Origin: a bacterium
GTDB lineage: Bacteria; Bdellovibrionota_C; UBA2361; CALJRW01
DNA: 64,000 nt
Assembly (NCBI GenBank): GCA_031385045.1
Contig: JANNBC010000016.1
Location: forward strand, 15,375-79,374
Direction of reading: 5' to 3'
Shown here: one piece after another, positions 21,712 through 47,931 of the stretch
Position numbering within the stretch: the stretch's first letter is position 1
How the letters are laid out: the number at the start of each line of letters is the position of its first letter
Program-made: the position numbers and the translations under genes
Notes under the pieces: model-generated
The model's database searches: none
The model's input: the letters and a program-made list of their open reading frames with translations, nothing else
Told to the model about the DNA's origin: nothing

Positions 21712-21782
21712 ATAGTGAGTCCAAGCAAAATCGTTAGTTTTTAAAGTAATTTATTTCTTGGACTCACTATAATCTTTTTTTG
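21712..21782. terminator. 14-bp stem hairpin plus T-run between the convergent VWA gene and trxB
   Basis: ATAGTGAGTCCAAG (21712-21725) pairs with CTTGGACTCACTAT (21757-21770) and is followed by AATCTTTTTTTT. The 31-nt loop is atypical for a terminator. Confidence 0.5.
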
Positions 21783-24940: not shown

Positions 24941-24957
24941 TGGGACAATTCGGAGAA

Positions 24958-25821: not shown

Positions 25822-25902
25822 AAGTTTTCTAGTAAAATCAAGTATTTGTAACTACAATCGAACTTCAGAAAGTTAGATGACCCTTTTTGCACACCTAGAT
25901 TC

Positions 25903-27774: not shown

Positions 27775-28095
27775 TAAAGTTCTTTAAGGAACACTTTTCG
27801 ATCGATATCAGGCAAGTTTTATCTATCTTAAAATATTTTCAATTAAGTATTTGAAATCATTAAAAAGATATAAAGTTTATCAAATCCCTTAGACTCAAAG
27901 TTAAAAATCAAATTTTTGATTATGGCAAACTCCTGTAGCAAGGTCCGAGTGGTGAAAATTAAATGCCTAAAAAGTAAAAATAACTTATTGCAATTATTTT
28001 TTAACGATGTATGTTACTGGTCAGATTCAGGAGCTACATGTCCAGCTTTGAATCCGGCCAATATTATTGTTCTTTTTTCGCTAATGGAGAATTAC

Positions 28096-29928: not shown

Positions 29929-29949
29929 TTTTTCTTGGAGATATATCAA

Positions 29950-30555: not shown

Positions 30556-30611
30556 TTTTTTAGCAACTGATTATTTTAATGAAGAATATTTTTTTAATGA
30601 GGAAGGCTCTA

Positions 30612-31598: not shown

Positions 31599-31635
31599 TC
31601 CTGCTTGAGTTTTAGGCAAAATTAAACTATTAATA

Positions 31636-31666
31636 AAAGCCGTTTCAACACGGCTTTTTTTATTTT
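31636..31666 (+). terminator. intrinsic terminator after the pilQ/lipoprotein unit
   Basis: AAAGCCG-TTTCAACA-CGGCTTT followed by TTTTTATTTT. Confidence 0.75.
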
Positions 31667-31678
31667 CCCTATCAGACA

Positions 31679-32161
31679 ATGAACTTAAAAGATTTACAAA
31701 AGATTATTGATATACTTAAAGAGAGTGACGTTAATGAATTCCATCTAGAAGAAGAAGGAACTTCGATTAAGTTAATTCGTGGTGTTTCTTTTGCGACACA
31801 GTCACAAGTAAATACCTACGCAACTCCGCAGTACGCTCAGCAACAACAGCAAATGCCCACAAGTGTAACTGTTAATGTTCCGGTCAATGCAGTTACTGAA
31901 GCGATCAAGGAAGATGAAGGTTTATTTAAGGTAGAGTCTCCAATAGTTGGAACTTTTTTCCGGAAGCCTTCACCAGATAGTCCATCCTTTGCCGAGGTTG
32001 GTAAGGTTGTGAAAAAAGGAGACAAGCTTTGTATCATCGAAGCGATGAAGTTAATGAACGAAATTGATGCACCAATTTCTGGAACAATTGAAAAAATCTT
32101 AGCGCAAGACGGACAGGTAGTGGAGTTTGGTGAGCCACTATTCTTAATTAGACCTTCTTAA
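31679..32161 (+). CDS. accB: acetyl-CoA carboxylase biotin carboxyl carrier protein
   Basis: 160 aa. Biotinylation motif '[12 protein letters not shown]'. Confidence 0.93.
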
Positions 32162-32181
32162 CCTGATCAAACAAAAATAAT

Positions 32182-33546: not shown

Positions 33547-33553
33547 ATTACTA

Positions 33554-34576
33554 ATGAAGAATTTAAGCATTAGGTTTTTGGTATTATTTTCTCTATCGTT
33601 TTTTTTATCTTCTAAAGTAATTGCAGAGATAGAGCCATTAGTTTCCACAATTAAAGTTAGTAGCTCTAGTTTTGATTTTGGAAATGTCCTCGAAGGTGAA
33701 AAGGTTACCGCTCATTTTCAAATTGAAAATACTGGTAACGCTCCATTAAATATTATTAATTTTATTCCAAGTTGTGGTTGCCTAGTTGCAAAGCTTGATT
33801 CGCAAATAATTCCCGCAGGTGCCATATTACCTATCTCCGCTGAGTTTGATACTCGGGGGTTTTCTGGTTTTCAGTCACAGCAAATTGCTTTTAACACCGA
33901 TAACCTAGAGCAAAAACAAGTTCTTTTTACAATCCAAGGAAATGTTGAGCCAGAGTTACTAGTTGAGCCAGATAAGATTTTTATTTCTCAAATCGCACCT
34001 CAAGAACTACTAAATTCTCCTGAGCTTAAATTCAAAGTCTCTGTTAATACTAAGAGTAAAGCTACAATCACTGATTTAATTGATCTTAGTCAGCTAGTAG
34101 AAATAAAAGATTTAAAAATATCTTCAAAGCAAGCTACCTTTGTTGCTAAGTATTTATTGCCTACAAAATCAGGACTATTTCGTGACCGCCTATCAATTAT
34201 TTTAAAGGATGGTAGTCAAAAAAGCTATAACGTCCCAATTTTTATTAAGGTCGAGGATCAATTAGAGATTACACCGCCGGCCTTGTCTTTCGGACTAATT
34301 CAGCCAGGTGGTAAGATTACTAAGAAATTAAAAATTAAATTTCAAAAAGAATTGCAACTAAAGATCCTTAGTCTGACATCAGAAAACCCAGCTATTTCAG
34401 CAGAGCTTGATCCAAAGTTATCTAACGATAATACTTTGGTTGTAAACGTAACGATCGATCCGGATCAGGTTCAAGAGAATATTTTAACTGATTTGATACT
34501 TACTACAAATCAAGCTGATTTATCTGAGCTTCGGGTAAATGTATTTGCAACAATTCCTCCAATCTTGGAAGATTAG
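33554..34576 (+). CDS. secreted DUF1573-like (ASH/PapD-like beta-sandwich) repeat protein
   Basis: Signal peptide. 'FDFGNVLEGEKVTAHFQIENTGNAPLNI....PSCGC' is the typical DUF1573 core. Start taken at ATG 33554; the ORF track starts at 33524. Confidence 0.7.
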   Translation: MKNLSIRFLVLFSLSFFLSSKVIAEIEPLVSTIKVSSSSFDFGNVLEGEKVTAHFQIENTGNAPLNIINFIPSCGCLVAKLDSQIIPAGAILPISAEFDTRGFSGFQSQQIAFNTDNLEQKQVLFTIQGNVEPELLVEPDKIFISQIAPQELLNSPELKFKVSVNTKSKATITDLIDLSQLVEIKDLKISSKQATFVAKYLLPTKSGLFRDRLSIILKDGSQKSYNVPIFIKVEDQLEITPPALSFGLIQPGGKITKKLKIKFQKELQLKILSLTSENPAISAELDPKLSNDNTLVVNVTIDPDQVQENILTDLILTTNQADLSELRVNVFATIPPILED

Positions 34577-34616
34577 TTTTTAAAAGCAAAATCCTTAGTT
34601 GGAATTTGAAAAAGAT

Positions 34617-36278
34617 ATGTACTACTTGCGATCATTAATTTTATTATTATTGTTATTAGTCAGTAGTGCTAACTTGTCCTTTGCTGACAAAGTCACAATT
34701 TATAATTTAGATTTTGCATACTCGATTGAATCACAAATTGATTCTGAGCAGAAGGAAATTAAAATTGGAGACTACTCTAAGATTATTAAAATCAGTAATC
34801 TGCATGATTTTATTGTTGAGCACTATTTCTTCCACACTAATACCGAATATAGCTTTGCCGAGCTTCGCGATTTTCTAAAGGCTTCTGTAACTGATAACAG
34901 ACCCTCCTTGGTAGCTTATATTATTAAAAAAGCAACCTTACAGCGTGACTGGACTTTCGCTCAAGCATCGGAGATGTTCTCTCTCTTAACTCCAGAATTT
35001 ATCGCCCAAATTGCTAAAAAAGATCAGTTTGAACTTGATTATCAACTGAGTAAGCGGACCAATGTAGGCAAGTATTTTCTTTTAATTGCCACTGAACATT
35101 ACTCCGATAGCTTCTTAAGGAATTGTTGCTCTAAGCCTTTTAATTTATTACCTTCGGTCGCTTTCTACTTGAGGCAGAAGCTTTCACTAGGAAATTCCCC
35201 AGTAGAAATAATTAATGATTTTTACCGTAAGAAATCAGAAATCTTAAGTAATGAAGATTTAAAAACAATTGAAAAAATCCTTTCATATCTGCAGGTCATG
35301 GGTCAGTTAAACTCGAGCTTTCCAAAGACCTATGAAACTATCAAGAAAGAATATCCTAGCTATTTTTCTGAGCTGAAAGAATTTTTCTTGGTTCTTAGAC
35401 AACAAGCCCTAGATCAAGCAATTAAACTGAAGAACTTTCAGCTAGCATTTGATTTATTACTTTTGCAGGATGTTAAAGAGCGCACCGAAGATACCCACAA
35501 GCTTGTAAAAGACTTGTTACAAGAACTTGATTTAGGCTTTGCTCCGCTATTAATTATTGACCCCTATAAATCTTACCTTAAAACTATTGCCGAGAAAGAT
35601 TATCAGGTTAAAGAAGCTGTGATTGCCGCACTAGAAAAAGTAGTCAAAGGCCTAGTTGATTCAGGGAAAGTTTTTGAATCGAAGGAATACCTTCCCGAAA
35701 TCTTCTTGTATCGGGAGAATCCAAATTCTGAAAATACTAAATTAGTTTTTTTATTAATTAAAGAACTGGATCGGGGTGGGCTTCGAGATCAGATCTACCT
35801 ACTTCGAGATACTTACGAATTAAATTATTCGGTCGGGCAAAAATTTTGGTTTTTTAAGCGAGGCTATTATTTTAGCTTATTATTTATCTGGGCTTTCCTA
35901 GCTATAATTATTGCCTTCTTTATCCTTGTTTACTTTAAAATTATTAAAATAGATAAGTACCAGATTTTCCTTAAGAAGCTTTTAAAAGATTTAATTAGTA
36001 TTAAACCAGTTATCACAAAAGGCCCGGCGAATCAGTTTAATCACCAATTTGATCAGTTAAACAGTGATCGCCAAAAGTTCAAATCCATGCTGAAGTATTT
36101 TGAGATGACTGAAAAATCTACTTTAGAACAAATTAAAAGTAACTATCGTAAAAAGATCAAAGCTTATCACCCTGATTTAAATCCAAATCAAAGTGAAATA
36201 GATAAAGCAAGATTTCTAGAAATAACGGAACGCTATGAAGAATTGCTTGGCCTATACTCTCGTTTTGGTCCTAAGTAG
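34617..36278 (+). CDS. membrane protein with a C-terminal J (DnaJ) domain
   Basis: N-terminal signal/TM, an internal TM (YFSLLFIWAFLAIIIAFFILVYF), and a C-terminal J domain 'IKSNYRKKIKAYHPDLNPN' containing the HPD motif. Confidence 0.75.
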   Translation: MYYLRSLILLLLLLVSSANLSFADKVTIYNLDFAYSIESQIDSEQKEIKIGDYSKIIKISNLHDFIVEHYFFHTNTEYSFAELRDFLKASVTDNRPSLVAYIIKKATLQRDWTFAQASEMFSLLTPEFIAQIAKKDQFELDYQLSKRTNVGKYFLLIATEHYSDSFLRNCCSKPFNLLPSVAFYLRQKLSLGNSPVEIINDFYRKKSEILSNEDLKTIEKILSYLQVMGQLNSSFPKTYETIKKEYPSYFSELKEFFLVLRQQALDQAIKLKNFQLAFDLLLLQDVKERTEDTHKLVKDLLQELDLGFAPLLIIDPYKSYLKTIAEKDYQVKEAVIAALEKVVKGLVDSGKVFESKEYLPEIFLYRENPNSENTKLVFLLIKELDRGGLRDQIYLLRDTYELNYSVGQKFWFFKRGYYFSLLFIWAFLAIIIAFFILVYFKIIKIDKYQIFLKKLLKDLISIKPVITKGPANQFNHQFDQLNSDRQKFKSMLKYFEMTEKSTLEQIKSNYRKKIKAYHPDLNPNQSEIDKARFLEITERYEELLGLYSRFGPK

Positions 36279-36499
36279 TGCTCTGTTTCTAAGCCTTCTT
36301 GCCATATTTAAATTTGCTAAGCAGTACTCTTTTCTTGGTGCTAAAAGAATCCCTCGCCAAATTTGTTGCTGATTAGAGTAGTTTTCTGTTTCTAGTTTTT
36401 GTAAGTTATTCATACAATTTATATTGCAAAAAACATGCCAGTAATTAACCACAGCAAGCCTTATTAAACTGTATCTTCGTGTAGAAAAACTCCCCTATG

Positions 36500-36640
36500 C
36501 TGTTGAGTTTTTCAGCAAGTAAAGCTAGTCTTATCCTGGGCAAGGCGCGAGGTAGCTTGCGAAACTGGTCAGATTCGGAAGGAAGCAGCCATAAGCGAAT
36601 CCTACTTGTGTTGCTTTGCCCGCTTTCGCTGAAGCTTCAG
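36500..36640 (+). ncRNA. ffs: signal recognition particle RNA (4.5S/SRP RNA); boundaries approximate
   Basis: 36567-36590 GGTCAGATTCGGAAGGAAGCAGCC matches the universally conserved helix-8 motif (E. coli GGUCAGGUCCGGAAGGAAGCAGCC) with the GGAA tetraloop. Flanking arms pair: GGGCAAGG with CTTTGCCC, AAAGC with GCTTT, and TTCAGC with GCTGAA. It lies upstream of dnaX-ybaB-recR, a common position. Confidence 0.8.
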
Positions 36641-36826
36641 CGTGGTAAACCCGTTTTCTCACCTTTTGGTACACACTAGATTTTGCTATTCAATAGCTAG
36701 GTCTATTGTGTCCCAAAAGGGTAGAATCACGCCGAAGCTTGTTAGATTATTATATCTGCAAAAAACTTTAGAGCGAAGGCGGATTGCTCATAGTATATAG
36801 GTCTTTTCTTTTGTATAATCTTCCAC

Positions 36827-38473
36827 ATGTCCTATCTGGTAATTGCTCGTAAGTATCGTCCAGAAGCATTCTCTGAAGTTAGTGGTCAGATTCATGTGAC
36901 AAAAACACTGGCTAATGCGATTAATCGGAATAAGGTTGCCCATGCCTACCTCTTTTGTGGGCCTAGAGGAGTTGGTAAGACTTCCATCGCCCGTATATTT
37001 GCTAAATCTTTAAATTGTGAGCAGGGACCAACTGCCACACCATGTTTAAAATGTAGTAACTGTACCGAAATCAAAGCAGGTAAGAGCCTAGCAGTGAGAG
37101 AAATTGACGGAGCCTCTCATAATAGTGTTGATGATGTAAGAGATTTAATTGATAATTTCAGAACACTACCACCTCCCAATTCAAAGCATAAGATTTATAT
37201 CATCGATGAAGTGCACATGTTAAGCACCGCCGCATTTAATGCTTTGCTAAAAAGCTTAGAAGAGCCACCACCAAATACTATCTTTATTTTAGCGACAACA
37301 GAAGCTCATAAGATTTTACCAACAGTGCTTTCTAGATGTCAGCGATTTGATTTACGTGCATTACCAATTGATGAAGTCCAATCCTGCTTACAGGCAATTT
37401 GCCGCGAAGAAAAAGTTAAGATTTCTGGCGAGTCTTTGCGGATGATTGCTCGCTTATCAGATGGATCGCTTCGCGATGCTCAGTCATTACTAGAACGGGT
37501 CTTAGCATTTTCCAATGATGATGTCTCACTTGATGATACGGCGCTAGCCCTTGGGACAGTAGGTAAAAATCAATTGCTACTACTTTCTCAAGCAATTTTT
37601 AATCGTGATGTAGAAACAGCCCTTGGTAAATTATCAGAAGTATTTTCTACCGGCCTTGATTCCAGTTTGTTCTTAAAAGAATTTGTAACTCATTGGCAGG
37701 AACTCTTAATTGCTAAGTTTGCTGGCAAGAAAGAACTAGTAGCGCTTGGCATCGAAGAAGATTGCCAGGCAGAATTACTAAGACAAGTGGAGTCTATTAA
37801 TAAAAGTGATTTACAAGACTTGGTAGATCTAGCAAGAAAAGGTGCCGATCAAGCACTCCGCAGTTCTTATCTAAAATTTTCTTTAGAAAGTTTAATTGTT
37901 CGTTTGGCAACAAGAGTTCCAATCTTAGATTTCGCAGAAGTCTTAAATACACTAAGTACTGGGCAGTCAGTTCAAAAAAAAAAGCCAGTAGCAATTCCTG
38001 AGATTAAAAATAAGCCAGAATTTATTCCGCAATCTCCGATTACTTCACCTGCTCCGACACTTGTTCCACAACCAACTCCTAGTGTTACTACCGAATATAC
38101 CTGGAAAGATTTTATTGATTATGTTGGTAAGATTTCCCAACCATTAATGCTGGAGAGCCTAAAAAGAATTTCGGTAGAGCGGTTTGTGCACCCACAACTA
38201 CAAGCTAGTGGTAATGACTTAAGTCTTAGGTACTTTAACAACCAAGCAAATATTATTAAGTTAAAAACAATCCTTAAGGATTTCACAAAACTTGATGACT
38301 GGCACATTAAGTTAACCTTAGCCCAACAGGCAGATTATATTCCAGGCAGTGTTCAACACCAAGAAGCCAAAAGTCGCTTTAAGGATAAGCAAAATCGTAT
38401 AGCTGAAATCTTAGAAGACCCTAACGTTAAAGCAATGAAAGAGCTTTTTCCTGGAAGTGAAATCGATCGATAA
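36827..38473 (+). CDS. dnaX: DNA polymerase III subunit tau/gamma
   Basis: 548 aa. 'HAYLFCGPRGVGKTS', the zinc module 'C..C..C..C', and 'SRCQRFDL'. Confidence 0.96.
   Translation: MSYLVIARKYRPEAFSEVSGQIHVTKTLANAINRNKVAHAYLFCGPRGVGKTSIARIFAKSLNCEQGPTATPCLKCSNCTEIKAGKSLAVREIDGASHNSVDDVRDLIDNFRTLPPPNSKHKIYIIDEVHMLSTAAFNALLKSLEEPPPNTIFILATTEAHKILPTVLSRCQRFDLRALPIDEVQSCLQAICREEKVKISGESLRMIARLSDGSLRDAQSLLERVLAFSNDDVSLDDTALALGTVGKNQLLLLSQAIFNRDVETALGKLSEVFSTGLDSSLFLKEFVTHWQELLIAKFAGKKELVALGIEEDCQAELLRQVESINKSDLQDLVDLARKGADQALRSSYLKFSLESLIVRLATRVPILDFAEVLNTLSTGQSVQKKKPVAIPEIKNKPEFIPQSPITSPAPTLVPQPTPSVTTEYTWKDFIDYVGKISQPLMLESLKRISVERFVHPQLQASGNDLSLRYFNNQANIIKLKTILKDFTKLDDWHIKLTLAQQADYIPGSVQHQEAKSRFKDKQNRIAEILEDPNVKAMKELFPGSEIDR
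37974..38001 (+). other. putative dnaX recoding signal: an A10 run containing an in-frame A_AAA_AAG heptamer, with a -1-frame TGA five codons downstream
   Basis: The zero frame reads ..GTT CAA AAA AAA AAG CCA.. The -1 frame after the slip reads GCC AGT AGC AAT TCC TGA (stop at 37999-38001). Confidence 0.45.
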
Positions 38474-38618
38474 ATTTACTGTTTTTCTATTAAATTTACA
38501 CTTAATCAGTGGCATCTAGACTAGCCAAATTAATCCTACAGTGCTAAATTTTACTTACTGATGCAGGGCAAATTTTCTTTCTGCCATGCTTTAAATGATA
38601 ATTTTTTTGGTACTAGTT

Positions 38619-38966
38619 ATGAACAAAGGAAGAGGTGGATTTCCAGGTGGTGGCGGTGGTGGAGTTGGTGATTTAATCAACCAAGCCAAGCAAATGCAAG
38701 CTAAATTAGAAGCTGCGCATGGTGAAGCACAACAATATTCTGAAGAAGGTCAGTCTGGTGGTGGAATGGTGAAAGTTGTTGCTAAAGGTGACAATAAGAT
38801 CGTTAGCGTTACAATTAATCCAGAAGTGCTTGATCCCAATGATGTGGAAATGTTACAGGATATGATTTTAGCTGCAACTAATGATGCCTTAACAAAAGTT
38901 CAAGCCAAGGTTCAAGGTGTTCTAACAAACATCACTGGCGGGATGAGCATTCCAGGGCTATTCTAA
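38619..38966 (+). CDS. ybaB: nucleoid-associated protein YbaB/EbfC
   Basis: 'MQAKLEAAHGEAQ...GGGMVKVVAKGDNKIVSVTINPEVLDP.DVEMLQDMILAATNDAL'. Start at ATG 38619; the ORF track starts at 38595. Confidence 0.9.
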   Translation: MNKGRGGFPGGGGGGVGDLINQAKQMQAKLEAAHGEAQQYSEEGQSGGGMVKVVAKGDNKIVSVTINPEVLDPNDVEMLQDMILAATNDALTKVQAKVQGVLTNITGGMSIPGLF

Positions 38967-38971
38967 ACTTA

Positions 38972-39568
38972 ATGCAGTATCTTCCTAAATCATTACAACG
39001 TTTAATTTCAGAATTAAACAAATTGCCAAGCGTCGGTGGTAAATCTGCCGCTCGCTTGGCTTATCACTTAATCAATTTCCCTCAGAACGCTGATGCCCTA
39101 GCCGCAGCCATGCGCGACGCCGCAGGTTCATTGCAACAATGTCAGCAATGTTATTTCATCACTGATGAAAAACTTTGTACTATTTGCAAAAGTACTAATC
39201 GAGATCATTCCGTAGTTTGTATTGTGGAAAAACCAGCCGATCTAATTGCCATTGAACAAGCTGGAGTTTTTCGTGGTTACTATCATGTCTTACACCAACT
39301 TTGGTCTCCAATTCGCGGACAAGGATTAGATGCCATGCACTTATCCGAGCTAGTCGAGCGTGCTAAAAAAGAAGAAGTTACCGAAGTTATTATTGCAACT
39401 GGTGCTACCGTAGAAGGTGAAGCAACCGCACTTTACTTAGCAAGATTGTTAACTGATAGTGGAATTAGAGCAACAAGATTAGCCCAAGGATTACCAAAGG
39501 GTGGAGATTTAGAATATCTTGATGATGTAACTCTTTCCCGCGCCCTTTCTGGCCGTACGATAATTTAG
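38972..39568 (+). CDS. recR: recombination protein RecR
   Basis: 198 aa. HhH 'LPSVGGKSAARLAYHL', the zinc finger 'CQQCYFITDEKLCTICKS', and a Toprim domain. Confidence 0.95.
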   Translation: MQYLPKSLQRLISELNKLPSVGGKSAARLAYHLINFPQNADALAAAMRDAAGSLQQCQQCYFITDEKLCTICKSTNRDHSVVCIVEKPADLIAIEQAGVFRGYYHVLHQLWSPIRGQGLDAMHLSELVERAKKEEVTEVIIATGATVEGEATALYLARLLTDSGIRATRLAQGLPKGGDLEYLDDVTLSRALSGRTII

Positions 39569-39751
39569 TGTTGTTTCAATTAAATTTTTTATATTAAAGT
39601 AATAACACTATCCACCGTAGCTAAAGCTTTGGTAAGACAAGTCCACCGTAGCCCATAGGGCGAAGGAGGATTATAGGCTCAGATATAAGACAAGCTTTAT
39701 TTAAGTAACTTAAATCACAAATAAATCTACCTATTTTGTACCGGCAATCTC

Positions 39752-39779
39752 TTGACTTTAATTTATTTTAAGGTAAATT
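39752..39779 (+). promoter_or_regulatory. candidate sigma70-type promoter for tRNA-Asn
   Basis: TTGACT (39752-39757), a 16-nt spacer, then TAAATT (39774-39779), about 17 nt upstream of the tRNA 5' end. Confidence 0.35.
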
Positions 39780-39795
39780 TTCAGTCCACAACTAT

Positions 39796-39868
39796 TCCCC
39801 GGTAGCTCAGTTGGTAGAGCAGTTGACTGTTAATCAATTGGTCGTAGGTTCGAGTCCTTCCCGGGGAG
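39796..39868 (+). tRNA. tRNA-Asn (anticodon GTT)
   Basis: The cloverleaf folds by hand: acceptor TCCCCGG/CCGGGGA, D arm GCTC-AGTTGGTA-GAGC, anticodon loop CTGTTAA, T loop TTCGAGT. One U-U mismatch in the T stem. CCA is not encoded. Confidence 0.93.
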
Positions 39869-39886
39869 TTTCTTCCTTTTTTATGA

Positions 39887-40237
39887 CTAGAAAAAACTAA
39901 CAGGATTTTGAGAGTCGAAATTATTTGGGAAAAGATTCTTTCTTGATTTAGTAAAATCTTGATTGATTTTTTGTTCTTGGATTGCAAGGACCATCGAAGC
40001 AACCTCAGGCAGCATATTCTTTAGGCTAATCTGATAAGTGGTTTTTAAGCTCTCAATAGCTGTAATAAACTGATGAGTAAAAGATCTGGATATAAAATTA
40101 ATATCTGTAAAATCAATAATAATTTGTTTTTTTGAGTCTGATTGAGAAAGGATTTCTTGAAGGATTAGATCTGTAGTTGTTCTAAGTGCAACCTGACTGG
40201 AATTTAGTAAATTCTTTAAGTAAATTGTTCTTTCCAT
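39887..40237 (-). CDS. DUF4325-like (STAS-like) small protein
   Basis: 116 aa. 'KKQIIIDFTDINFISRSFTHQFITAI' matches the core of STAS-like DUF4325 proteins as recalled from family knowledge, not from a search. Co-oriented with the GHKL ATPase 53 nt upstream. Confidence 0.55.
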   Translation of the reverse strand: MERTIYLKNLLNSSQVALRTTTDLILQEILSQSDSKKQIIIDFTDINFISRSFTHQFITAIESLKTTYQISLKNMLPEVASMVLAIQEQKINQDFTKSRKNLFPNNFDSQNPVSFF

Positions 40238-40290
40238 ATTGTTTATAATACTTCTTCTAAATAAAATTCGCTAGATAAATATATAATGAG

Positions 40291-41178
40291 CTATTTGGAT
40301 ATATATTTTAGTATATCGACTCTCGTTGTTGGGCGCATTAGCCTAGCACTAATTATTGTCCCCTGCCAATTAATCGGTATTGTTCCAAGTTTTGGTTCTA
40401 CTATATTTGAAGAATTATGATAGCAAGCATTCCCGCTAATCAGTGTAAATTCGCCTTGAAGTTCACTCGAGCAGAAAAGATTAATATTCGTCCCAATTCC
40501 GTATCCACGTTCATTTGGTGTTTCTAATTTAGAGGATTTGCCCTCAATCGCTTGACTCAAAGCATCGTAATGACTTGAGGTTCCAATTCCTCGCCGATCG
40601 TAACACCCTTTAAGACCAAGCCCATCGTCTAACAAGCAAATTTCAAGTTCTCCGCGAGTTGGCCAAAATTGACTGAAAATCCAAAAGTTTTCTGCTTCGG
40701 AATGTTGGATAACATTATCGCAAAGTTCAGAAATCAAGTATGAGATTGACCCTCGATAGTTTTCGCTGACTTCTTGATTCCTTTTAAGATATTCAATAAT
40801 GAAATGATCATATTCTGTTGAGATTCTCTCGATCAGGTTGATCCGATTCATTTCTGGTTTAATTAAATTGACATGGCAAATAGGCATTTGATTTTTATTG
40901 TCATCGGCGATTGGAGTTGTTGTACCTTCTGGAAAAAATATTGACGATAAAGAATTAGGAGTATTGAGGGATATATTGCAGTTTTCACTGAGTTTCGTAA
41001 TTTTAGCAGCTATAGGAAGTATGGTAAGAGGGGTTAGATAATGAATTTCTGATAAATCAATATTACTAGCAAACTCTTCCAGTGTTTTGAGATTATTGAC
41101 AAGCTCTTGTATTCTTTGAATGGGGTCTCTTTCTTGGGTTAATGATAGCTTGATCATGTTAGAAAGCTTAAGCGTCAA
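40291..41178 (-). CDS. GHKL-superfamily ATP-binding protein (RsbW/SpoIIAB-like HATPase domain with a ~140-aa unknown N-terminal domain)
   Basis: N-box 'ISELCDNVIQHS', G1 'LLDDGLGL', G2 'ERGYGIGTNI'. Start is either TTG 41178 or ATG 41157. Confidence 0.65.
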   Translation of the reverse strand: MTLKLSNMIKLSLTQERDPIQRIQELVNNLKTLEEFASNIDLSEIHYLTPLTILPIAAKITKLSENCNISLNTPNSLSSIFFPEGTTTPIADDNKNQMPICHVNLIKPEMNRINLIERISTEYDHFIIEYLKRNQEVSENYRGSISYLISELCDNVIQHSEAENFWIFSQFWPTRGELEICLLDDGLGLKGCYDRRGIGTSSHYDALSQAIEGKSSKLETPNERGYGIGTNINLFCSSELQGEFTLISGNACYHNSSNIVEPKLGTIPINWQGTIISARLMRPTTRVDILKYISK

Positions 41179-41232
41179 AATAGGTAAAGTAAAGTGGTTT
41201 TTAGTTGAAATGCTTGTTCTTATTTAGAGCGC

Positions 41233-41270
41233 TAGGTTTCGAAGCTCGACCGCCACGGGGAGTTTCTTTC
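41233..41270 (+). repeat. degenerate direct repeat of the tRNA-Asn 3' end (att-like copy 1)
   Basis: TAGGTTTCGAAGCTCGACCGCCACGGGGAGTTTCTTTC compared with tRNA 39845-39875 TAGGTTCGAGTCCTTCCCGGGGAGTTTCTTCC. They share the exact 13-mer CGGGGAGTTTCTT. Confidence 0.65.
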
Positions 41271-41280
41271 TACCGTCTTT

Positions 41281-41586
41281 TCAGCCAAGCTTTTCATTGA
41301 ATGGCGCACTCACTGAAAAGCCTAGCTTTTTATCTCTTAATGTTGTGTTCTGAATTAGATAATTAATAAAAGTCCTCTTTTCACTTATCTCAGAACTTTC
41401 AAAAATACGCTTAGCTCTTTTTGCTAAAGAAAAGACAGTGTTTGCAGTTAATAAGTAGTCCTGATCAGCCTTAGTAAAGATTTCAATCTCAATGTTTAAT
41501 TTTTGTTGATTAGATTTTAACTGGTACAGTTTTATTTCATAGTCTTCCTTAGCAATGCTCCAGTTTAAGAGTCTATCGTTAGACAC
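41281..41586 (-). pseudogene. C-terminal remnant of a large serine recombinase
   Basis: The 101-aa ORF has the coiled-coil/C-terminal pattern 'LLTANTVFSLAKRAKRIFESSEISEKRTFINYLIQNTTLRDKKL', familiar from large serine recombinases. The catalytic resolvase domain is absent. It lies directly next to att-like copy 1. Confidence 0.5.
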
Positions 41587-41695
41587 ATCATCATTAATGG
41601 TATCACCTAGCCAGACGTAAAGTCCAGGTTGATCATAGGATAAAAGTTTGCCCTACAATGTTTTTTGTAATGAGCCCCAGATTTTATAAATCTTA

Positions 41696-42850
41696 CTACT
41701 CAGCTACAATTTTGTTTATCAACTTCTTAAGTGCTCTAAGTGCTTTTGACTTAAGTGGAACGAAATTACTTTCGGATCGTTTTGCCGCAAGTGCCGCAGC
41801 ATTAACTGCTTTGACAGCAAGTTCGCTCGAAAGAATTAATTCATCTACAGTTTTATCTGTTCTTAAAGCTAGCTCGCCAGCAAAAGTATCGACATGACTA
41901 TCGGCAAGTTGCGTGGCACTTTTAGCTGCTTTTCCACCTTTGCCTACAGATAGTTTTTTTGTTTTATTAATCGCATCACTGACCAATGCTCGATAATCTG
42001 CTTGGCAATCGGTGAATCCAAAATTTGCGATAGTCGCTTTAACCTCAGAGGTTAAATCCCCAAAAAGATTGGCGGCATTTACTGTTGTCATTGAGCTAAA
42101 AACAGCAGCTCCTGTTGCGGCAAGCTCATTTGTTGAATTCAATTGAACAAATGAAGCGAGGCGCTTAGTTTCACCTGGTGCGAGCTTGAATGTGAATCTT
42201 GTAATAAGATTATCGGAGATTTGTATCGCAAGATCTGTCCTACTAGATAGACAACTTGGCCCTTGAGCGATAAAAGCGACAGCTGGATCACTTGGGGTAG
42301 TTGGATTATCACTTGTTACAATCCAACTATCATTATTAAAAAAACTTGTATCGCCGGAACTGCTGTATCTTTTTGCCGTACTTTCATCAGATCCAAGGTT
42401 GCCATAGATAAAGACTTCTGCAGTTCTAGCTACGGCGGTAGGATTTTCAATCGCAACTAAGAGTCGTGCTGTTGGAGAACCTCCAACGAGGTTACTAAAA
42501 AATAGGTATTGCCCTGTTACATTTAAACCGTCAATTGCTATTTTTTCAGCAGTAATAGCTGTTCCAAATGGGTTACCTTCCACTGAAATGTTAGACTGAT
42601 CTGCAGAACTACTTGGTATGTAGTCAACATTATTAACGGTCACTAAAAAGAACTCATCGAAGGCATCAGAATGACTGGGAATGCTTGCATCGCCAATATT
42701 GAAAGCTGGATTAAAATCAATTGAGGTCCATGTCGCCCCAGCCTCATTAACGGAGTCAACGGGCAATGATATTGGAGTGGCACTAGCAATTGAGCTAATC
42801 ATTAGCACTGCTAATAGACCTTTAATTTTGATAGCGGTTTTAATCTTCAT
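41696..42850 (-). CDS. secreted protein, unknown function (island cargo)
   Basis: 384 aa counted from ATG 42850 (GAGGA upstream). Signal peptide 'LLAVLMISSIASA'. Ala-rich helical C-terminus. No motif recognised. Confidence 0.6.
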   Translation of the reverse strand: MKIKTAIKIKGLLAVLMISSIASATPISLPVDSVNEAGATWTSIDFNPAFNIGDASIPSHSDAFDEFFLVTVNNVDYIPSSSADQSNISVEGNPFGTAITAEKIAIDGLNVTGQYLFFSNLVGGSPTARLLVAIENPTAVARTAEVFIYGNLGSDESTAKRYSSSGDTSFFNNDSWIVTSDNPTTPSDPAVAFIAQGPSCLSSRTDLAIQISDNLITRFTFKLAPGETKRLASFVQLNSTNELAATGAAVFSSMTTVNAANLFGDLTSEVKATIANFGFTDCQADYRALVSDAINKTKKLSVGKGGKAAKSATQLADSHVDTFAGELALRTDKTVDELILSSELAVKAVNAAALAAKRSESNFVPLKSKALRALKKLINKIVAE

Positions 42851-42931
42851 ATTTTCCTCAATTAACATTGATTGACAAAATGGGAATAACTAATCTGACC
42901 TTCGCCACATTTCTGGACAGGAGTCTCTCGG

Positions 42932-43078
42932 TTATTGACCAGCATAAATTAACTTAAATTTATATGGACTACAATCCCCAACAGACGAATGGATTCTTGT
43001 AGTAATATAGAAGTTTTCTATCAACCAGTAATAGCTGAACCATACGACAACATCAAGTAAAATTTTTTTTGATAAATA
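42932..43078 (-). pseudogene. remnant of an rve (DDE integrase/IS3-like OrfB) C-terminus
   Basis: The translation '..WLIENFYITTRIHSSVGDCSPYKFKLIYAGQ*' resembles the conserved '..YN..R.HSSLGY.SP.EF' end of rve-domain proteins. There is no upstream catalytic domain. Confidence 0.4.
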
Positions 43079-43570
43079 AGTGTTGAAACTAGAGCTAGGT
43101 GACTTTTTTAACTATCTTGTCATATTTTATCTAGAGTCAGGCAACTTTTGCGTAGCAATTTCTTAATTCATAATCACTTTAGTTCCTAAGCAACAATTTC
43201 TAAAAATTATCGATAAATCATAATAAAATTTTATGATAATTTAACTATGGAGATAATCAAAAAATACCTATAATCTATCTAAGTTTTTGATATCAGCAAA
43301 GTTTAGACAAGAGATCCTAACTTCAAATCTCAGTTATGTCCTAAGCAGAAATGGATAGGCAGAGTATGTGGTGCATAATCTAGAAGCTTTCCAACGGCTT
43401 TATGGGCTAGCAGATTATGCAAGAATTCGAATTGAGTCAGAGCGAACTGATTAACTAAGGAAGAGAAGCCAGATAACTGAGTAGGCTTTTTTAAAAAACT
43501 AGCCTGGTTTTAGTTTAAAAAGTTGAAAGATAGTTTTCTTGCAGAGAAACTTTAATCTTACCCCAATCAA

Positions 43571-43608
43571 GAGTCCTGAACTCTTTCAACTTGGGGAGTT
43601 TCCCTTTT
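43571..43608 (+). repeat. att-like copy 2 (weak)
   Basis: GAGTCCTGAACTCTTTCAACTTGGGGAGTTTCCCTTTT. It shares GAGTCC and the 10-mer GGGGAGTTTC, plus the downstream CTTTTCTAG, with the tRNA 3' flank. Confidence 0.45.
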
Positions 43609-43745
43609 CTAGTCAGATTCTGAATTTCATAAATGTCTTTAGTCAATTTGAGTAAGCTTCTAACATAATTTGAGTAGAAAGTGACCTGACTCTATTTGTA
43701 AGTAACGAGCTTAGTAAAAATATTGGATGGGAATCCCTATCAACA

Positions 43746-43858
43746 CTACAGGTGAATTTCTTCAAATTCATCAGGACTATAATGCCCCAACAAAGAATTC
43801 AATTTAAGGGTATTTTTATCCAGCAAAATAGTAAAGTTCACTTTTAAAATGTTAGGAG
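43746..43858 (-). pseudogene. second remnant of an rve-type integrase C-terminus
   Basis: '..KLNSLLGHYSPDEFEEIHL*'. The DNA GGACTATAATGCCCCAACAAAGAAT is about 80% identical to GGACTACAATCCCCAACAGACGAAT at 42967-42991. Confidence 0.35.
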
Positions 43859-44224
43859 TTATTCTAGTTTGCCTAATGCATACTGCATACCCGCCGCAAA
43901 TCCTCCCATCGCAACTAATGATAGGCTCATTAATCCCAATAGTTTTGCCACAGCTACAGACTTTACTGCAATCGTGTCATGAGAATGAAACTTCATCGAT
44001 TTCATAAAGTCAGTCACAGTGTCGCCCGTTTTTGGGGTCAAATTACTGTTAGTATGCAAGTCGGCAGAACGCTCTTTACTTGAACCACCACTCCTGGAAT
44101 ATTTAGCAATATTTTCTGGGCTAGAAGGACTTCCCATTCCAGGTGGCAGGGCATTAGCGTTGCCTATTCCAAACGAGGCAGCGGCCAATCCTGTTAATAA
44201 TAGTGATTTTTGAGTTTTTAGCAT
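43859..44224 (-). CDS. small secreted/membrane protein, unknown function
   Basis: 121 aa with an N-terminal signal peptide and a C-terminal hydrophobic helix. Confidence 0.45.
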   Translation of the reverse strand: MLKTQKSLLLTGLAAASFGIGNANALPPGMGSPSSPENIAKYSRSGGSSKERSADLHTNSNLTPKTGDTVTDFMKSMKFHSHDTIAVKSVAVAKLLGLMSLSLVAMGGFAAGMQYALGKLE

Positions 44225-44403
44225 TTAATCATCTTTTTTGAATATTATTATACAGGGTTATGTAGCTACTCTCCTCTGGTGTGATATGAATTATTTACCG
44301 TAATATTATTAAATGTTGAGTATTTGTATGTGTGAATTTTTAACGTAAATTTTGATAGGCTACTAACTTCTTCCAGATAAGTATTTGCGATAGTCTTTAA
44401 CTC

Positions 44404-44440
44404 TAAGTTTCGAAGCTTGACCGCTAAGGGGAGTTTTTTA
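44404..44440 (+). repeat. att-like copy 3
   Basis: TAAGTTTCGAAGCTTGACCGCTAAGGGGAGTTTTTTA, closely similar to copy 1. Confidence 0.6.
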
Positions 44441-44593
44441 CTACTCAGCATTCTGACAGAGTCCAAGTTCCTATAGTTTTTAAAATATAATAGTAGAATT
44501 GAATTGATGTCTATTGATTGCTTCTTCGCAATAACTCGATAAAGCTACTCAGCCCCATTTTAAATCTTGAGGAATTTAGTTGAAGAAGGTTTA

Positions 44594-45117
44594 TTATTCC
44601 TTTAAGGACTGGAACCCTAATTTTCTTTTTTTAGTTTCAATCGGTTGTTCAAGCTGGGAGATCACAAATCTGATCTCCTGTAATTCCTCGCTATGTTCTG
44701 AGAATCCTTTGGAGACTTTTTGTTCAAGTGCCTGTAACCGTTGTTTCAAATCAGTGTGTTCCTGTGCAACTTCCTTTAGTTTGAAAAAACTCGAACTAAC
44801 ATAATGCTAGCTTGAATTGCGATCTTACTGTTTAGCACATTAGCAGCCATAACTGCTCCATATTCAGTAAAGACTCTTGGAGATTTCCTTCTTCCGCCGT
44901 GGGCATAACTTGAAGTCGCAATTTGCGACTTCAAGTCTGTAACTTCTTGAATATTAAGAGAAAACATAAAGTCAGAGGGGAATCTTTCCAAGTTTCTAGT
45001 AACCTGTTCATTTAGGCGTTTTGTGTTGACACCATAAAGATCCGCCAAGTCGCTATCTAAAATAACCCTTTGACCTTTAATTATAATAATTCTTGATTCA
45101 ATCTCTTTAGTAAGTTT
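44594..45117 (-). pseudogene. ORF6N (KilA-N-like) domain protein, frameshifted and lacking a start codon
   Basis: 'IIIIKGQRVILDSDLADLYGVNTKRLNEQVTRNLERFPSDFMFSL...SQIATS..GGRRKSPRVFTEYGAVMAANVLNS' is the typical ORF6N core. The C-terminal half ('KEVAQEHTDLKQRLQALEQKV...ETKKRKLGF') continues in another frame after the A6 run at 44784-44789. There is no ATG, GTG or TTG after the upstream TAG until the internal TTG at 45048. Confidence 0.7.
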
Positions 45118-45383
45118 AAGTTTTGGTCTGGAACAACCCTACATGGCTTTAACTGCTTTACTGATACCAATTGCTACTATGATCATGATTAAAAAAGTGA
45201 AACCCACTTAGTTCAAAGTAGGAATATTCTCTGAGAAGAATTTTATGTTACTTGTTCCATCTTTCCCTCTTGTGCCACCCAACTCTAGTTCTAAGAGTAG
45301 CCGGTCTCTCTCGCCACCATTAACTTCTCAGTCCTTAGGTCAATGAATGTAAAAGACAGGCTACTTACTTATTGAAAACTAGT

Positions 45384-45974
45384 TTAAAAAACTGCAGCTG
45401 GAGTTTGCGTCATTGCCCAAGTTCCCCAAGCATAAAAATTAACACCATTTGTTTCATTGTAACCATATAGCGCTCCACCATAAATTGAGGATGTCGATAT
45501 GTCACCAGTCCCAGCATCAATAGCGTTATATAAGAAATACCTGTCCTCAAATTGTGTATCTAGATTATCTGCCAGAGTTTCATAGATACACAAGACTCCT
45601 TCTGGGGCAGTTGGGTTACTGAACGAACCAGTGCAGGTAGCATTCCAGGTATCTTTTTTTACAAAGACAACGGAACTTGGGGCTGTTTGTAGCTTAACGG
45701 GAAAGGAGATTTGTGCAGCAGCATAATTTTCGGCGGTTCCACCTGATAGATTCCAAACGCCAGTTTGAGTTACAGGAGCTTTATTTAAATCTGTTAAGGA
45801 AGAATAGCCTGTTGGACAACTTGAGCTTTCTATGGTGATGAGCTTTGGTGTTTTTATATTTACCTTGCCATTAACTACGCTAGCCTTTTTAGAATTTTTA
45901 AGGCAGATAATTTCTGCTTGCAAATTGCTGGCTAGAAGAAACAATCCTAAAGTAAGTAACGCTAAATTTTTCAT
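45384..45974 (-). CDS. secreted Cys-containing protein, paralog A (unknown family)
   Basis: Signal peptide. Shares motifs with 46460-47038: 'C.KN', 'KTP.L.T', 'CP.GY', 'WNL.G', 'CTGS', 'APTAP.GVLCIYE', 'YA.GTWA.T'. Confidence 0.65.
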   Translation of the reverse strand: MKNLALLTLGLFLLASNLQAEIICLKNSKKASVVNGKVNIKTPKLITIESSSCPTGYSSLTDLNKAPVTQTGVWNLSGGTAENYAAAQISFPVKLQTAPSSVVFVKKDTWNATCTGSFSNPTAPEGVLCIYETLADNLDTQFEDRYFLYNAIDAGTGDISTSSIYGGALYGYNETNGVNFYAWGTWAMTQTPAAVF

Positions 45975-46218
45975 TTTTATTTTCAAGAGTAAAAGATTGA
46001 GAGTTTTGGGTTATGCCCAAATTTTTTCAGATTAGATGATAGAAATATGAAAGTAAACAAATAAGTATCTTGCCCTAAGTTAGAGGGTAGGAGTGGAAAA
46101 CCACTTTGCCAAGATGGCTGTGAGAGTCAGGTAACTTATTACTAGAAATGCCAATCCAGCTTTTAATGAGTTTTATCAGATATTGGGACCCCCTAGAATG
46201 AATATCTGGGCTAGGATT

Positions 46219-46259
46219 ATAGGTTTCAAAGTTCGACAGCATTATAAAGAGTTTTGTTC
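46219..46259 (+). repeat. att-like copy 4 (most degenerate)
   Basis: TAGGTTTCAAAGTTCGACAGCATTATAAAGAGTTTTGTTC. The left half matches copy 1 at about 18 of 21 positions. Confidence 0.45.
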
Positions 46260-46459
46260 TTTTATTAATAGATTTTCCTTCCTAAATTCAAACACATACT
46301 AAACGCGATTTTTTAATTGTTAATACTACTAGATTATCGTGCTTCCAGTATCTTTCTTCGAATATTGCAATTCTCAATTAAGATTCCCTTCATGTATTTT
46401 ATTGCTTTAATATCCTAAAGGAAGTTATATTATTTTGCCAAGATTTATATGGAGACTAT

Positions 46460-47038
46460 ATGAAAAAAATTGTTCTAATATTACTGAGTATTATTTTCTG
46501 TACATTTAATATTCAAGCAGAAGTGGTGTGTATGAAAAATATCAAAAGATATAAAGTATCAGCTACTAGTAAAGTAAAAGTGAAAACACCTCAATTGTTA
46601 ACGACTGAAGATTTAACTTGCCCTGCTGGATATACTCAATTAGTAGAAGTTCCAAGCAAACCTACTACCTTTATTGGCTCATGGAATTTGGCAGGACAAG
46701 GAAATGGTAGCTATGGGGCGGCAAGTATTTCTTTTCCAGAACCTTTAGATTCCGATCCCAGCGAGGTTATTGTTGTGCAGTTTGGAACTAACAATGGGAC
46801 ATGTACAGGATCGTCTACCGCACCAACTGCTCCAGCAGGCGTGCTTTGTATTTATGAAGGTTATCAGAGTGGACTAAGGAGTGATTTTAATAATCGATAC
46901 AATGCCTTTACACCAGTCGATGACAGTGGTTCAGGGAGAAGCGCCTCAAGATTTGGAACAGCCTTATTTGGCTATCCAACTATTGCTTCGTCATTTGAAT
47001 ACTATGCTTTCGGTACTTGGGCGGTAACAAAACCATAA
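46460..47038 (+). CDS. secreted Cys-containing protein, paralog B (unknown family)
   Basis: 192 aa with a signal peptide and GGAGA upstream. Motifs shared with paralog A are listed under that feature. Confidence 0.65.
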   Translation: MKKIVLILLSIIFCTFNIQAEVVCMKNIKRYKVSATSKVKVKTPQLLTTEDLTCPAGYTQLVEVPSKPTTFIGSWNLAGQGNGSYGAASISFPEPLDSDPSEVIVVQFGTNNGTCTGSSTAPTAPAGVLCIYEGYQSGLRSDFNNRYNAFTPVDDSGSGRSASRFGTALFGYPTIASSFEYYAFGTWAVTKP

Positions 47039-47095
47039 TTTAAACTTTTACAGATAAGTAAAGGGTTACGCTAGCTAAAATGCGTGATAAATTAT

Positions 47096-47323
47096 TTTGT
47101 ATATACTAAAACACATTAAGTTTTTCCTTACGGCATGGAAAAATGCGAAGAGCATTTTCCGCTCATCGTGTTTTAGTATATTTGTTTTCCCCAATAATTA
47201 ACCTTATAAAATAAGGTTAATTACCTTAGCGACCCCCAAGGGTCGCCGCAAGCACTTCGTGCTTGATATACTAGGCGATTAGATTTGGACGGTAATTATC
47301 AATGTCGCCTAGTATATACAAAT
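47096..47323. repeat. 228-bp nested inverted-repeat element (MITE-like or structured RNA)
   Basis: Outer 13-bp inverted repeat TTTGTATATACTA (47096-47108) / TAGTATATACAAA (47311-47323). Inside are a 14-bp IR (47101-47114/47168-47181), an 11-bp hairpin (47196-47222), a GC hairpin (47229-47246), a UUCG-loop hairpin (47249-47266) and a 13-bp IR (47266-47278/47305-47317). Confidence 0.55.
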
Positions 47324-47474
47324 ACTTAGAGTTGGTAGTTGCAAATTTGAATCGGTGCTTCTAATTTGCAACAAATATTAATTGGCATTGGAAGGTAGGA
47401 GAAGTAGGCTCGCTCTACAGGCATTAAATTGTTTATTACTTTTATGCCATCGGTTAGTTTGTTACTTTAATAGC

Positions 47475-47771
47475 ATGAAAACAGGGCGTAACTTCAAACT
47501 ATCCTTTTTAGTTGTTGCAATCTTGAGTTACATTCTTTATTTGGCTATTGGACAAAAGCCTCCCACCCAAACTAAGCCCCAATATCTTAGCTATGTAGTT
47601 GATCCAAAATTACAGGAATTAAGATTTTTTTCGAAAGACGACCAAAACAAAAAACTTCTAAGCATTAGAAGGTTGCTAGAATATTTAGTTGGGAGCGGTC
47701 AAGAATTAGTATCCGCTATGAATGGTGGGATGTATCAGATGGATTTTACACCCAAATTGATCTTCTCCTGA
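47475..47771 (+). pseudogene. truncated DUF2233/phosphodiester-glycosidase-like gene (N-terminal ~98 codons only)
   Basis: TM anchor, then '..LRFFSKDDQNKKLLSIRRL...GQELVSAMNGGMYQMDFTP', which resembles the N-terminal third of DUF2233 proteins. The ORF stops right after the 'MNGGMY' motif. Confidence 0.45.
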
Positions 47772-47809
47772 TTTTTGGACTCCTAAGTCTATAGTTGGGG
47801 GTCCAAAAA
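47772..47809. terminator. hairpin with A/T-run arms, a possible bidirectional terminator
   Basis: TTTTTGGAC(TCC)...(GGG)GTCCAAAAA: a 9-12 bp stem with a 14-nt loop. Confidence 0.4.
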
Positions 47810-47931
47810 TCTGGGAAAGGTCATGATGTCATACAGTTTTCCTCCTATTGATAGCCAAATGGTTTTGCTCATAAACAATTTCTTGACAAAGTTTATTCCA
47901 ATTCGAGCCAGGCACAAGTTCAAAAATAGCT

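Follow-up and report, generated by a model that had tools for sequence, protein, structure and literature searches.

A decayed tandem array at tRNA-Asn in a Bdellovibrionota genome, probably built by tRNA-targeting large serine recombinases

Tandem accretion involving integrative and conjugative elements (ICEs) as well as integrative and mobilizable elements (IMEs), together with their decayed relatives (cis-mobilizable elements, CIMEs), is established and has been reviewed (PMC5704250); the ICESt1-type case is that of Pavlovic et al. 2004, as cited in that review. IMEs that use serine recombinases usually insert inside protein genes and disrupt them (PMC5704250). Prochlorococcus tycheposon arrays arise by repeated integration at an island tRNA, older elements being pushed inward and fragmented integrases and partial tRNAs being left behind, and a minority of them carry a large serine recombinase (LSR) (bioRxiv 10.1101/2020.12.28.424599). 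Here we describe a comparable locus in a 64,000-nucleotide stretch of a Bdellovibrionota genome (contig C45, JANNBC010000016.1, positions 15375-79374; hereafter the window), which belongs to an assembly of 2.83 Mb in 61 contigs. A tRNA-Asn gene, the only one that a genome-wide ARAGORN search found in this host, is positioned downstream of dnaX-ybaB-recR and is followed by four repeats of a motif that resembles its 3' end. The original prediction had read the following 8 kb as the outcome of successive integration at this tRNA with older junctions pushed outward, and our analysis supports that view through a motif unique to the locus, the end of synteny with a sister species, adjacent recombinase debris and intact relatives at tRNA-Asn. 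Most probably, integrative elements entered the 3' end of tRNA-Asn in tandem by means of tRNA-targeting LSRs, and the region is what remains of their array after decay. Like the tycheposon arrays, the island adjoins a tRNA and would have been built by repeated integration at that same tRNA; as in the accretion of ICEs, IMEs and CIMEs, a newcomer would have entered the attachment (att) site of a decayed resident at the 3' end of the target gene, and co-oriented att repeats bound segments that lack an integrase.

The features on which this reading depends are given below in window coordinates.
39796-39868, plus strand: tRNA-Asn(GTT) gene (ARAGORN; Rfam RF00005, 70.5 bits), read as the bacterial attachment site (attB) and as the left arm of attL.
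39862-39877, plus strand: core and, directly beside the tRNA, the 9-nt scar of a recombinase 3' end; read in antisense as stop-KRKKLPGKDSNLRPID-stop.
41232-41273, plus strand: copy 1, with arm at 41232-41255 and core at 41256-41268; the minus strand is the last 14 codons of a recombinase pseudogene.
41226-41586, minus strand: LSR pseudogene with about the C-terminal 120 aa left and an in-frame TGA at 41281-41283.
43561-43617, plus strand: copy 2, with consensus-type arm at 43561-43592, core GGGGAGTTTCC at 43593-43603 and flank at 43604-43617.
44403-44444, plus strand: copy 3, with arm and core (AGGGGAGTTTTTT, 44427-44439); the minus strand reads SSKKLPLAVKLRNLEL.
46220-46259, plus strand: copy 4, with a well-kept arm (46220-46240) and a degraded core that has a 2-nt insertion.

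Read outward, the array runs from the tRNA and its scar through segment 1, copy 1 with its 120-aa stub, segment 2, copy 2, segment 3, copy 3 and segment 4 to copy 4. Segment 1 holds genes for a STAS-like and an ATPase-like protein, segment 2 a gene for a 390-aa protein and insertion sequence (IS) debris, segment 3 IS debris and a gene for a 121-aa protein, and segment 4 an ORF6N gene and the gene for a protein termed B. This internal order, from the tRNA to the ORF6N gene, is reproduced by independent assemblies from two samples. A Logan contig that ends inside the tRNA was also considered as evidence and was judged uninformative, as a tRNA common to co-occurring relatives would disrupt a de Bruijn graph in any case. 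The comparison set contains a single congeneric genome, the sister species G001 (a metagenome-assembled genome of the Bdellovibrionota; RecR 94% identical at the amino acid level), with which synteny ends at 39883, so that the island starts less than 20 nt from the tRNA-Asn end. Integrase remnants adjoin the att repeats: the 120-aa stub at copy 1, a clear tail at copy 2, tail-like codons by homology at copies 3 and 4, and the scar at the tRNA flank. No integrase domain was detected in any open reading frame (ORF) of 39.8-47.8 kb by means of the ORF list and Pfam, in agreement with the claim that no intact integrase remains.

The four repeats lie where they had been reported, all on one strand. 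The 13-mer CGGGGAGTTTCTT at the tRNA end (39862) recurs exactly in copy 1 (41256) and at no other site in the 2.83-Mb genome; the 10-mer GGGGAGTTTC is present in copy 2 as described, and three of its seven genomic sites fall at the locus on one strand (39863, 41257, 43593). Copies 1, 3 and 4 form one family (86% identity over 42 nt; 86-90% in the 21-nt left half), and copy 4 does match mainly in its left half. A whole-genome pattern search allowing up to 3 mismatches and an nhmmer profile recovered only these three copies (E values of 1e-11, 2e-11 and 2e-6, the last for copy 4, with a next best E of about 1), which rules out a generic dispersed repeat, the family being found only at the locus. 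By hand count, copies 1 to 4 match the tRNA at 15, 11, 13 and 9 positions of the 16-nt core, and the decrease in similarity that had been noted along the copies is therefore not strict with distance. Among 30 relatives scanned, a copy of the motif was found only in G001, at the equivalent place, and matches in the others were no commoner than those of a reversed control pattern. Two metagenome scans, one with the motif and one with the region upstream of the tRNA, returned no match.

The nature of the repeats is clearest at copy 1. The 101-aa ORF at 41281-41586 (minus strand) aligns with residues 414-487 of an intact 499-aa LSR encoded on host contig C44 (BLASTP E 1e-10) and a search of 1.8 billion representatives gave 838 homologues, the best full-length sequence among them (P0004, with all three LSR domains) being 55% identical at the C-terminus. 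These matches confirm the serine-recombinase C-terminal remnant that had been proposed here. No Pfam domain was found in the ORF, in which only the C-terminal coiled-coil and tail region is left, without Resolvase, Recombinase or zinc ribbon; it is, to judge from these alignments, a pseudogene fragment of the LSR family and not a functional member. When its frame is read through the TGA it crosses copy 1 as APFNEKLG-stop-KDGRKKLPVAVELRNLAL-stop, and the spacing from PFN over 10 aa to (W/K)LP is that of homologues, for example SPFNLVLELADNPNWLP... Given this continuity of frame and the family spacing, copy 1 is the true 3' end of the recombinase pseudogene.

Copy 2 carries a tail of its own. 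Its minus strand encodes KLPKLKEFRTLDWGKIK (...RKGKLPKLKEFRTLDWGKIK), matching the tail WLPLVDKFRTLNWGVIK of distant homologues, and in a single comparison it scored 15.9 bits (E 3.5e-7) against a hidden Markov model (HMM) of 16 homologue tails, the second-best six-frame match genome-wide. The arm of copy 2 is about 74% identical (28/38, hand count) to the arm in an unrelated metagenome contig, L159. On the minus strand copy 3 reads SSKKLPLAVKLRNLEL, copy 4 NKTLYNAVEL-stop-NL and the single copy of G001, g1, ERKLPLADKLRNMEL; all three are, by their sequence, clear homologues of copy 1. We read the repeats as an LSR 3' coding tail joined to an attachment site, demonstrably so for copy 1, clearly for copy 2, and by homology to copy 1 for copies 3 and 4. 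The flank of the tRNA fits the same description: its 13-mer is identical to that of copy 1 (15/16 over 16 nt), the G001 flank reads SD-stop-KRRKLPGKDSNLRPID-stop in antisense with the same scar (KRRKLP) adjoining the tRNA, and a few recombinase codons evidently still abut tRNA-Asn in both species. As a separate observation, the best six-frame match to the tail HMM outside the window (..SPNWLRIVDSF.., E 0.023) lies at C53:47358-47459 on the plus strand and may be another LSR junction scar.

The repeats had been interpreted as degenerate ends of the tRNA itself, and in this respect the original prediction has to be revised. When the left half of copies 1, 3 and 4 was considered as a decayed tRNA-Asn T-arm and aligned locally with the 34 tRNAs of the genome, tRNA-Asn proved no better than the others. 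The Rfam tRNA model likewise detected no tRNA fragment in the left halves of the repeats, and no other Rfam family matched the motif. Since the left halves have neither a preference for tRNA-Asn nor a recognizable tRNA fragment, we read them as an arm of the element's attachment site (attP) together with coding tail. The repeats are best identified as attP-type arm, core and recombinase 3' end, that is, as the P-O-P' junctions of a tandem array, and not as decayed tRNA ends. An integron-type cassette array was also considered and rejected, there being no tyrosine recombinase and the motif being a coding tail rather than an attC-like imperfect palindrome.

Intact members of the recombinase family place the end of their gene inside a tRNA. 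The gene for P0024 (497 aa) stops 27 nt into a complete tRNA-Asn that lies in antisense, on two independent contigs (L154 and L155), and the finished record of Legionella adelaidensis NCTC12735 (NZ_LR134433.1) contains a 500-aa LSR whose gene likewise stops within a complete tRNA-Asn in antisense. In more distant relatives the tRNAs concerned are tRNA-Leu and tRNA-Glu. Among 122 homologue tails, 35 are of a DSN type (...LRG.DSNLRP, ...LPGWDSNPRPIGY), which is the antisense of the tRNA acceptor and T-arm in those loci whose DNA was checked, and 23 carry a ...LP.VD.FRT.. tail. The rule that a DSN tail always marks attL and an FRT tail always attP was found to hold only in part: under the integrase end of L152 and L153 lies the 3' fragment of a tRNA-Asn without the 5' half, which suggests that in some relatives attP contains a long copy of the tRNA. 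For the subgroup relevant to the window, the rule is upheld by the pair of integrase ends in L. adelaidensis. Ending in a tRNA is a habit that extends beyond tRNA-Asn, as LSR genes on the human-gut virome contigs L162 (MT837677.1) and L163 (MT836653.1), with products 31-35% identical to P0004, stop within antisense tRNA-Leu(CAG) and tRNA-Glu(TTC), respectively.

The host itself carries such an element at another tRNA. The 499-aa LSR on C44 (Resolvase, Recombinase and Zn_ribbon_recom) has its stop codon inside an antisense tRNA-His and belongs to a 6.9-kb element (C43:41419-41629, C44:1-6921 and the tail of C27) that also encodes a SpoVG-like protein, a 382-aa protein and a 1040-aa type IIG restriction-modification-like enzyme. 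Overlaps among C43, C27 and C44 place both occupied and empty tRNA-His sites in the assembly graph, so this element may be active.

An intact counterpart of the array is found in L. adelaidensis at about 241.5-254.0 kb of NZ_LR134433.1, where tRNA-Asn, the LSR and 12.4 kb are followed by an arm, a core and a 36-aa recombinase stub, which shares 92% identity with the intact integrase at its 3' end. Its internal junction consists of arm, GGGGAGCCA and stub, with GAGTTC-N18-GGAGCCA preceding the stub; the intact copy at the tRNA ends in ...KWLPGQDLNL-stop and the stub in ...KWLPLVSILRT... The cargo comprises an AbiE toxin-antitoxin pair, an Eco57I-type methylase, a helicase, a SpoVG-like protein and a tyrosine recombinase. 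The LSR is annotated in the record only as a 'recombinase family protein', and the stub is not in the (incomplete) gene table. The two loci share the tRNA-Asn target and an internal junction made of arm, core and integrase stub; they differ in that the proximal element of L. adelaidensis is intact whereas all elements of the window are decayed, and the L. adelaidensis proteins are about 34% identical to the closest full-length relative of the window sequence. The Legionella pair shows what accretion would leave behind, namely arm, core and integrase stub, with a tail that appears tRNA-encoded at attL and arm-encoded at the internal junction. By this comparison the four repeats of the window are junctions of the L. 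adelaidensis type at later stages of decay. At the level of sequence, these alignments establish the anatomy of the array, the uniqueness of its motif, the homology of its parts and the association of the family with tRNA-Asn.

In this family the integrase gene lies at the tRNA-proximal end of the element, oriented towards the tRNA, and its final codons, (W/K)-L-P, are the antisense of the tRNA end ...GGGGAG(CCA); in the mechanism that we propose, strand exchange would take place there. At the real tRNA (attL) the frame would finish inside the T-arm (...LPGKDSNLRPID-stop), and in the free element or behind a newer insertion it would finish in the element's own P arm (...LP-LVDKFRTLNW-type tail). 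Because the tail would switch between T-arm and P arm, each new integration would leave an internal junction in three parts, namely the newcomer's P arm, the core and the 3' end of the integrase that was there before. Later on, the integrases would have been lost together with most genes of the elements, partly by IS3-family insertions. The crossover position, the order of events and the former independence of every segment we infer, exchange at the (W)LP codons being suggested by the tail switch in L. adelaidensis.

The spacing within the arms is consistent with such a mechanism. In copies 1, 2 and 3, g1, L158, L159 and L. adelaidensis, a T-loop-like motif (...G(T/C)(T/C)C) stands 18 nt from GGAG, compared with 13 nt in tRNA-Asn (hand counts), and the tRNA-His element has a similar outward shift of about 6 bp (hand alignment). 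In structural studies of LSRs the motif for the zinc-ribbon domain lies nearer the centre of attB than of attP, by 5 bp (PMC3783163), and by analogy the arms look like attP half-sites that may mimic the tRNA half-site with the expected 5-bp offset. A more speculative and rather unlikely extension is that the LSR protein carries one of two C-terminal tails, a short tRNA-encoded one when integrated and a longer, cross-phylum conserved, P-arm-encoded one (WLP-LVDKFRTLNW...) when free or in tandem. Such a tail could sense the integration state and tune directionality or expression, and integrase-less segments bounded by arm and core could still be mobilized in trans; the tRNA-Asn locus would then be a cassette platform driven by serine integrases.

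The sister species provides a second view of the locus. G001 is collinear with the window over 24198-39883 and diverges 14 nt past tRNA-Asn, where its tRNA is followed by a 377-aa orphan, a VIT1 transporter, the protein B orthologue, g1 and an intact 151-aa ORF6N gene (A). The order in the window is copy 3, frameshifted A, B and copy 4, and in both species A stands just to the right of a motif and B just to the left of one. Copy 3 is homologous to g1, which likewise precedes the ORF6N gene. The content 3' of the tRNA differs between the two species, modules A and B alone being common and their arrangement being different. The right flank of copy 2 (GGGGAGTTTCC--CTTTTCTAGTCAGA) equals the G001 tRNA flank (GGGGAGTTTCCTTCTTTTCTAGTCAGA) over 25 positions with one 2-nt gap (hand count); DNA that abuts the tRNA in G001 thus stands 3.7 kb from the tRNA here.

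Several observations weigh against a history of repeated arrivals. The expectation that a close relative would reveal the insertion held in that synteny stops 14 nt after the tRNA and the content beyond is variable, and failed in that a clean empty tRNA-Asn site was not found in G001. The distal flank of G001 maps to host contig C56 and the window flank at about 50.35-52.1 kb maps to G001 contig C9; because homology to G001 returns no earlier than about 50.35 kb, and then on another contig, the right end of the island may lie beyond 47810. Composition does not set the array apart either, as its G+C (0.33-0.40) resembles that of the flanks (0.33-0.42). Against the family tail HMM, the tails of copies 1, 3 and g1 give only weak matches (0.8, -0.9 and 2.4 bits), copy 4 is almost without a core, and in segments 1 and 4 nothing of an integrase is left apart from the junction codons; these two segments could be cargo modules rearranged among existing junctions and not separate arrivals. 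The 5-bp offset is drawn from one comparison of tRNA and arm and from the one analogous tRNA-His case, the arms being homologous and not independent of each other.

The rival that survives best supposes one or very few integrations followed by local duplication or rearrangement (segmental duplication, unequal crossing-over between arms, or IS-mediated events), the repeats then not being separate arrivals. Copies 1, 3 and 4 are nearer to each other than to any outside sequence, a sizeable integrase remnant is present only at copy 1, IS3-family debris lies within the array, and duplication with deletions could yield both the G001 arrangement, in which A and B flank one motif, and that of the window, in which they lie between two. 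However, the flanks of the copies are unrelated beyond about 42-75 nt and the tRNA flank has a scar of its own. The arm of copy 2 belongs to another lineage and is close to arms from unrelated metagenomes, which implies that at least two element lineages were involved, and real accretion in L. adelaidensis gives exactly the same picture. Taken together, these points render local duplication unlikely as the main origin of the repeats. Far less credible is the proposal that the motif has a chromosomal function, as a regulatory site, small RNA or terminator associated with the neighbouring secreted-protein genes, and is like the tRNA end by coincidence. The motif is intergenic and adjoins co-oriented genes, and one copy is better conserved between the two species than its surroundings. 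Yet it matches no Rfam family, it lies in frame with the recombinase pseudogene and completes it at the family spacing, the genome has just two sites of the 13-mer from the tRNA end, and in other phyla the same arm and core adjoin the ends of recombinases. An origin by chance, or as a dispersed repeat of a generic kind, which short cores in A+T-rich DNA and the 28 genomic sites of the 9-mer GGGGAGTTT might favour, can practically be dismissed, as the profile search recovered nothing else in 2.8 Mb, relatives except G001 stay at the level of the reversed control, and the 82 motif matches in 596 Gb of species-representative genome contigs are all in unrelated organisms apart from G001 and approximate the chance number by our own estimate.

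Successive integration at tRNA-Asn remains the preferred reading, and the contents of the segments that it would have brought in, or that accumulated later, are as follows.
39887-40237, minus strand: 116-aa STAS-like/DUF4325 protein in segment 1 (weak Pfam match below the gathering cut-off).
40291-41178, minus strand: 295-aa GHKL-type ATPase-like protein in segment 1 (weak Pfam match below the gathering cut-off).
41696-42868, minus strand: 390-aa secreted orphan in segment 2, without Pfam or PADLOC match and single copy in the genome.
42895-43080, minus strand: IS3-family fragment A, comprising a terminal inverted repeat and a transposase C-terminus (tblastn and blastn matches).
43701-43801, minus strand: IS3-family fragment B, comprising a terminal repeat (about 43706) and a transposase C-terminus, 77-78% identical in DNA to IS ends at six contig ends.
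43859-44224, minus strand: 121-aa secreted orphan; the identical protein is found on independent contigs from two samples.
44590-45048, minus strand: frameshifted ORF6N/KilA-N-like gene (A; Pfam PF10543, E 2e-22).
45384-45986, minus strand: 200-aa secreted protein B, 87% identical in nucleotides to G001, where the orthologue also lies just left of a motif copy.

The 295-aa ATPase-like protein is absent from G001 and present in 1 of 90 other genomes of the order, and an exact-sequence look-up returned nothing on record. A PADLOC search of the cargo proteins gave only a non-significant DrmA match, for this same protein. The ORF6N gene was correctly described as frameshifted, since the intact 151-aa orthologue of G001 matches it in two frames (91% and 88%); that orthologue matches the PADLOC candidate family PDC-S05. 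A near-perfect 30-nt palindrome at 44907-44936 lies inside the ORF6N gene and is conserved in G001, and independent short-read contigs stop there. Protein B has a paralogue, B', at 46460-47038, which is 43% identical and in opposite orientation, so that the pair straddles copy 4. B and B' are small secreted Cys-containing proteins without family assignment, and a third, weak relative is encoded on C9.

The two rve-type integrase C-terminal remnants that had been listed among the mobile-element debris are real as pieces; they do not, however, derive from island integrases. The terminal repeat of fragment A, TGACCTTCGCCACATTTCTGGACA, resembles TGAGCTTCGCCAAAATGTTGGACA of a multicopy IS, and the parent IS3-family element encodes OrfA (93 aa) and OrfB (314 aa; rve/rve_3). 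As far as their sequence tells, the rve pieces are truncated scars of this multicopy element and unrelated to island integration. The element is present at the ends of C6, C12, C31, C32, C60 and C4 and has interrupted the assembly at many contig ends; it appears to be complete at about C6:1-1300. Other repeats were also observed. A dispersed repeat of about 250 nt at 43178-43426, in segment 2 between the IS fragments, has copies on C42 (two), on C1 and elsewhere on C45 (70-78% identity). A 228-bp element at 47096-47323, which resembles a miniature inverted-repeat transposable element, has 22-nt inverted repeats at its ends and weaker copies in G001 (window 47154-47318 against G001 C46, 66-73% identity). 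Far to the left of the array, a dispersed repeat of about 171 nt at 21602-21772 has copies on C26, C36, C53 and C60 and in G001 (84-90% identity).

As an island the locus is ordinary, in that tRNA-linked arrays of decayed elements are well described; its history is unusually legible. The scars point to a widespread habit of an LSR clade, seen in Bdellovibrionota, Legionella and many metagenome contigs, that is apparently undescribed, as a limited literature search found no description of a tRNA-Asn-specific LSR clade. The clade appears to integrate at the very 3' end of tRNA-Asn (tRNA-His, -Leu and -Glu in relatives), with the integrase frame running into the tRNA. It would offer natural attB/attP pairs in a conserved, ubiquitous target for the mining of serine integrases. 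For annotation, a simple rule results: where a short ORF has ...WLPG.DSN.. or ...WLPLVD.FRT.. as its end, there is an att junction of an LSR.

Compared with described systems, the array differs in its recombinase, its scars and its target. The ICE and IME cases involve mostly tyrosine integrases, whereas the window points to an LSR acting at the 3' end of a tRNA without disrupting it, and unlike ICEs and IMEs it has no conjugation or mobilization genes left. From the tycheposon arrays it is separated by phylum, by scars that are attP-type arms and integrase 3' ends and not recognizable partial tRNAs, and by the loss of any replication module. The intact relatives of the window recombinase resemble phage-type LSRs (A118/LI, Bxb1 and phiC31; PMC3783163) in having Resolvase, Recombinase and Zn_ribbon_recom domains, short sites and an apparent 5-bp attB/attP offset. 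In contrast to those enzymes, the family represented here appears to target the 3' end of a tRNA, with an integrase frame that would cross the crossover and a tail that would differ between the integrated and the free element.

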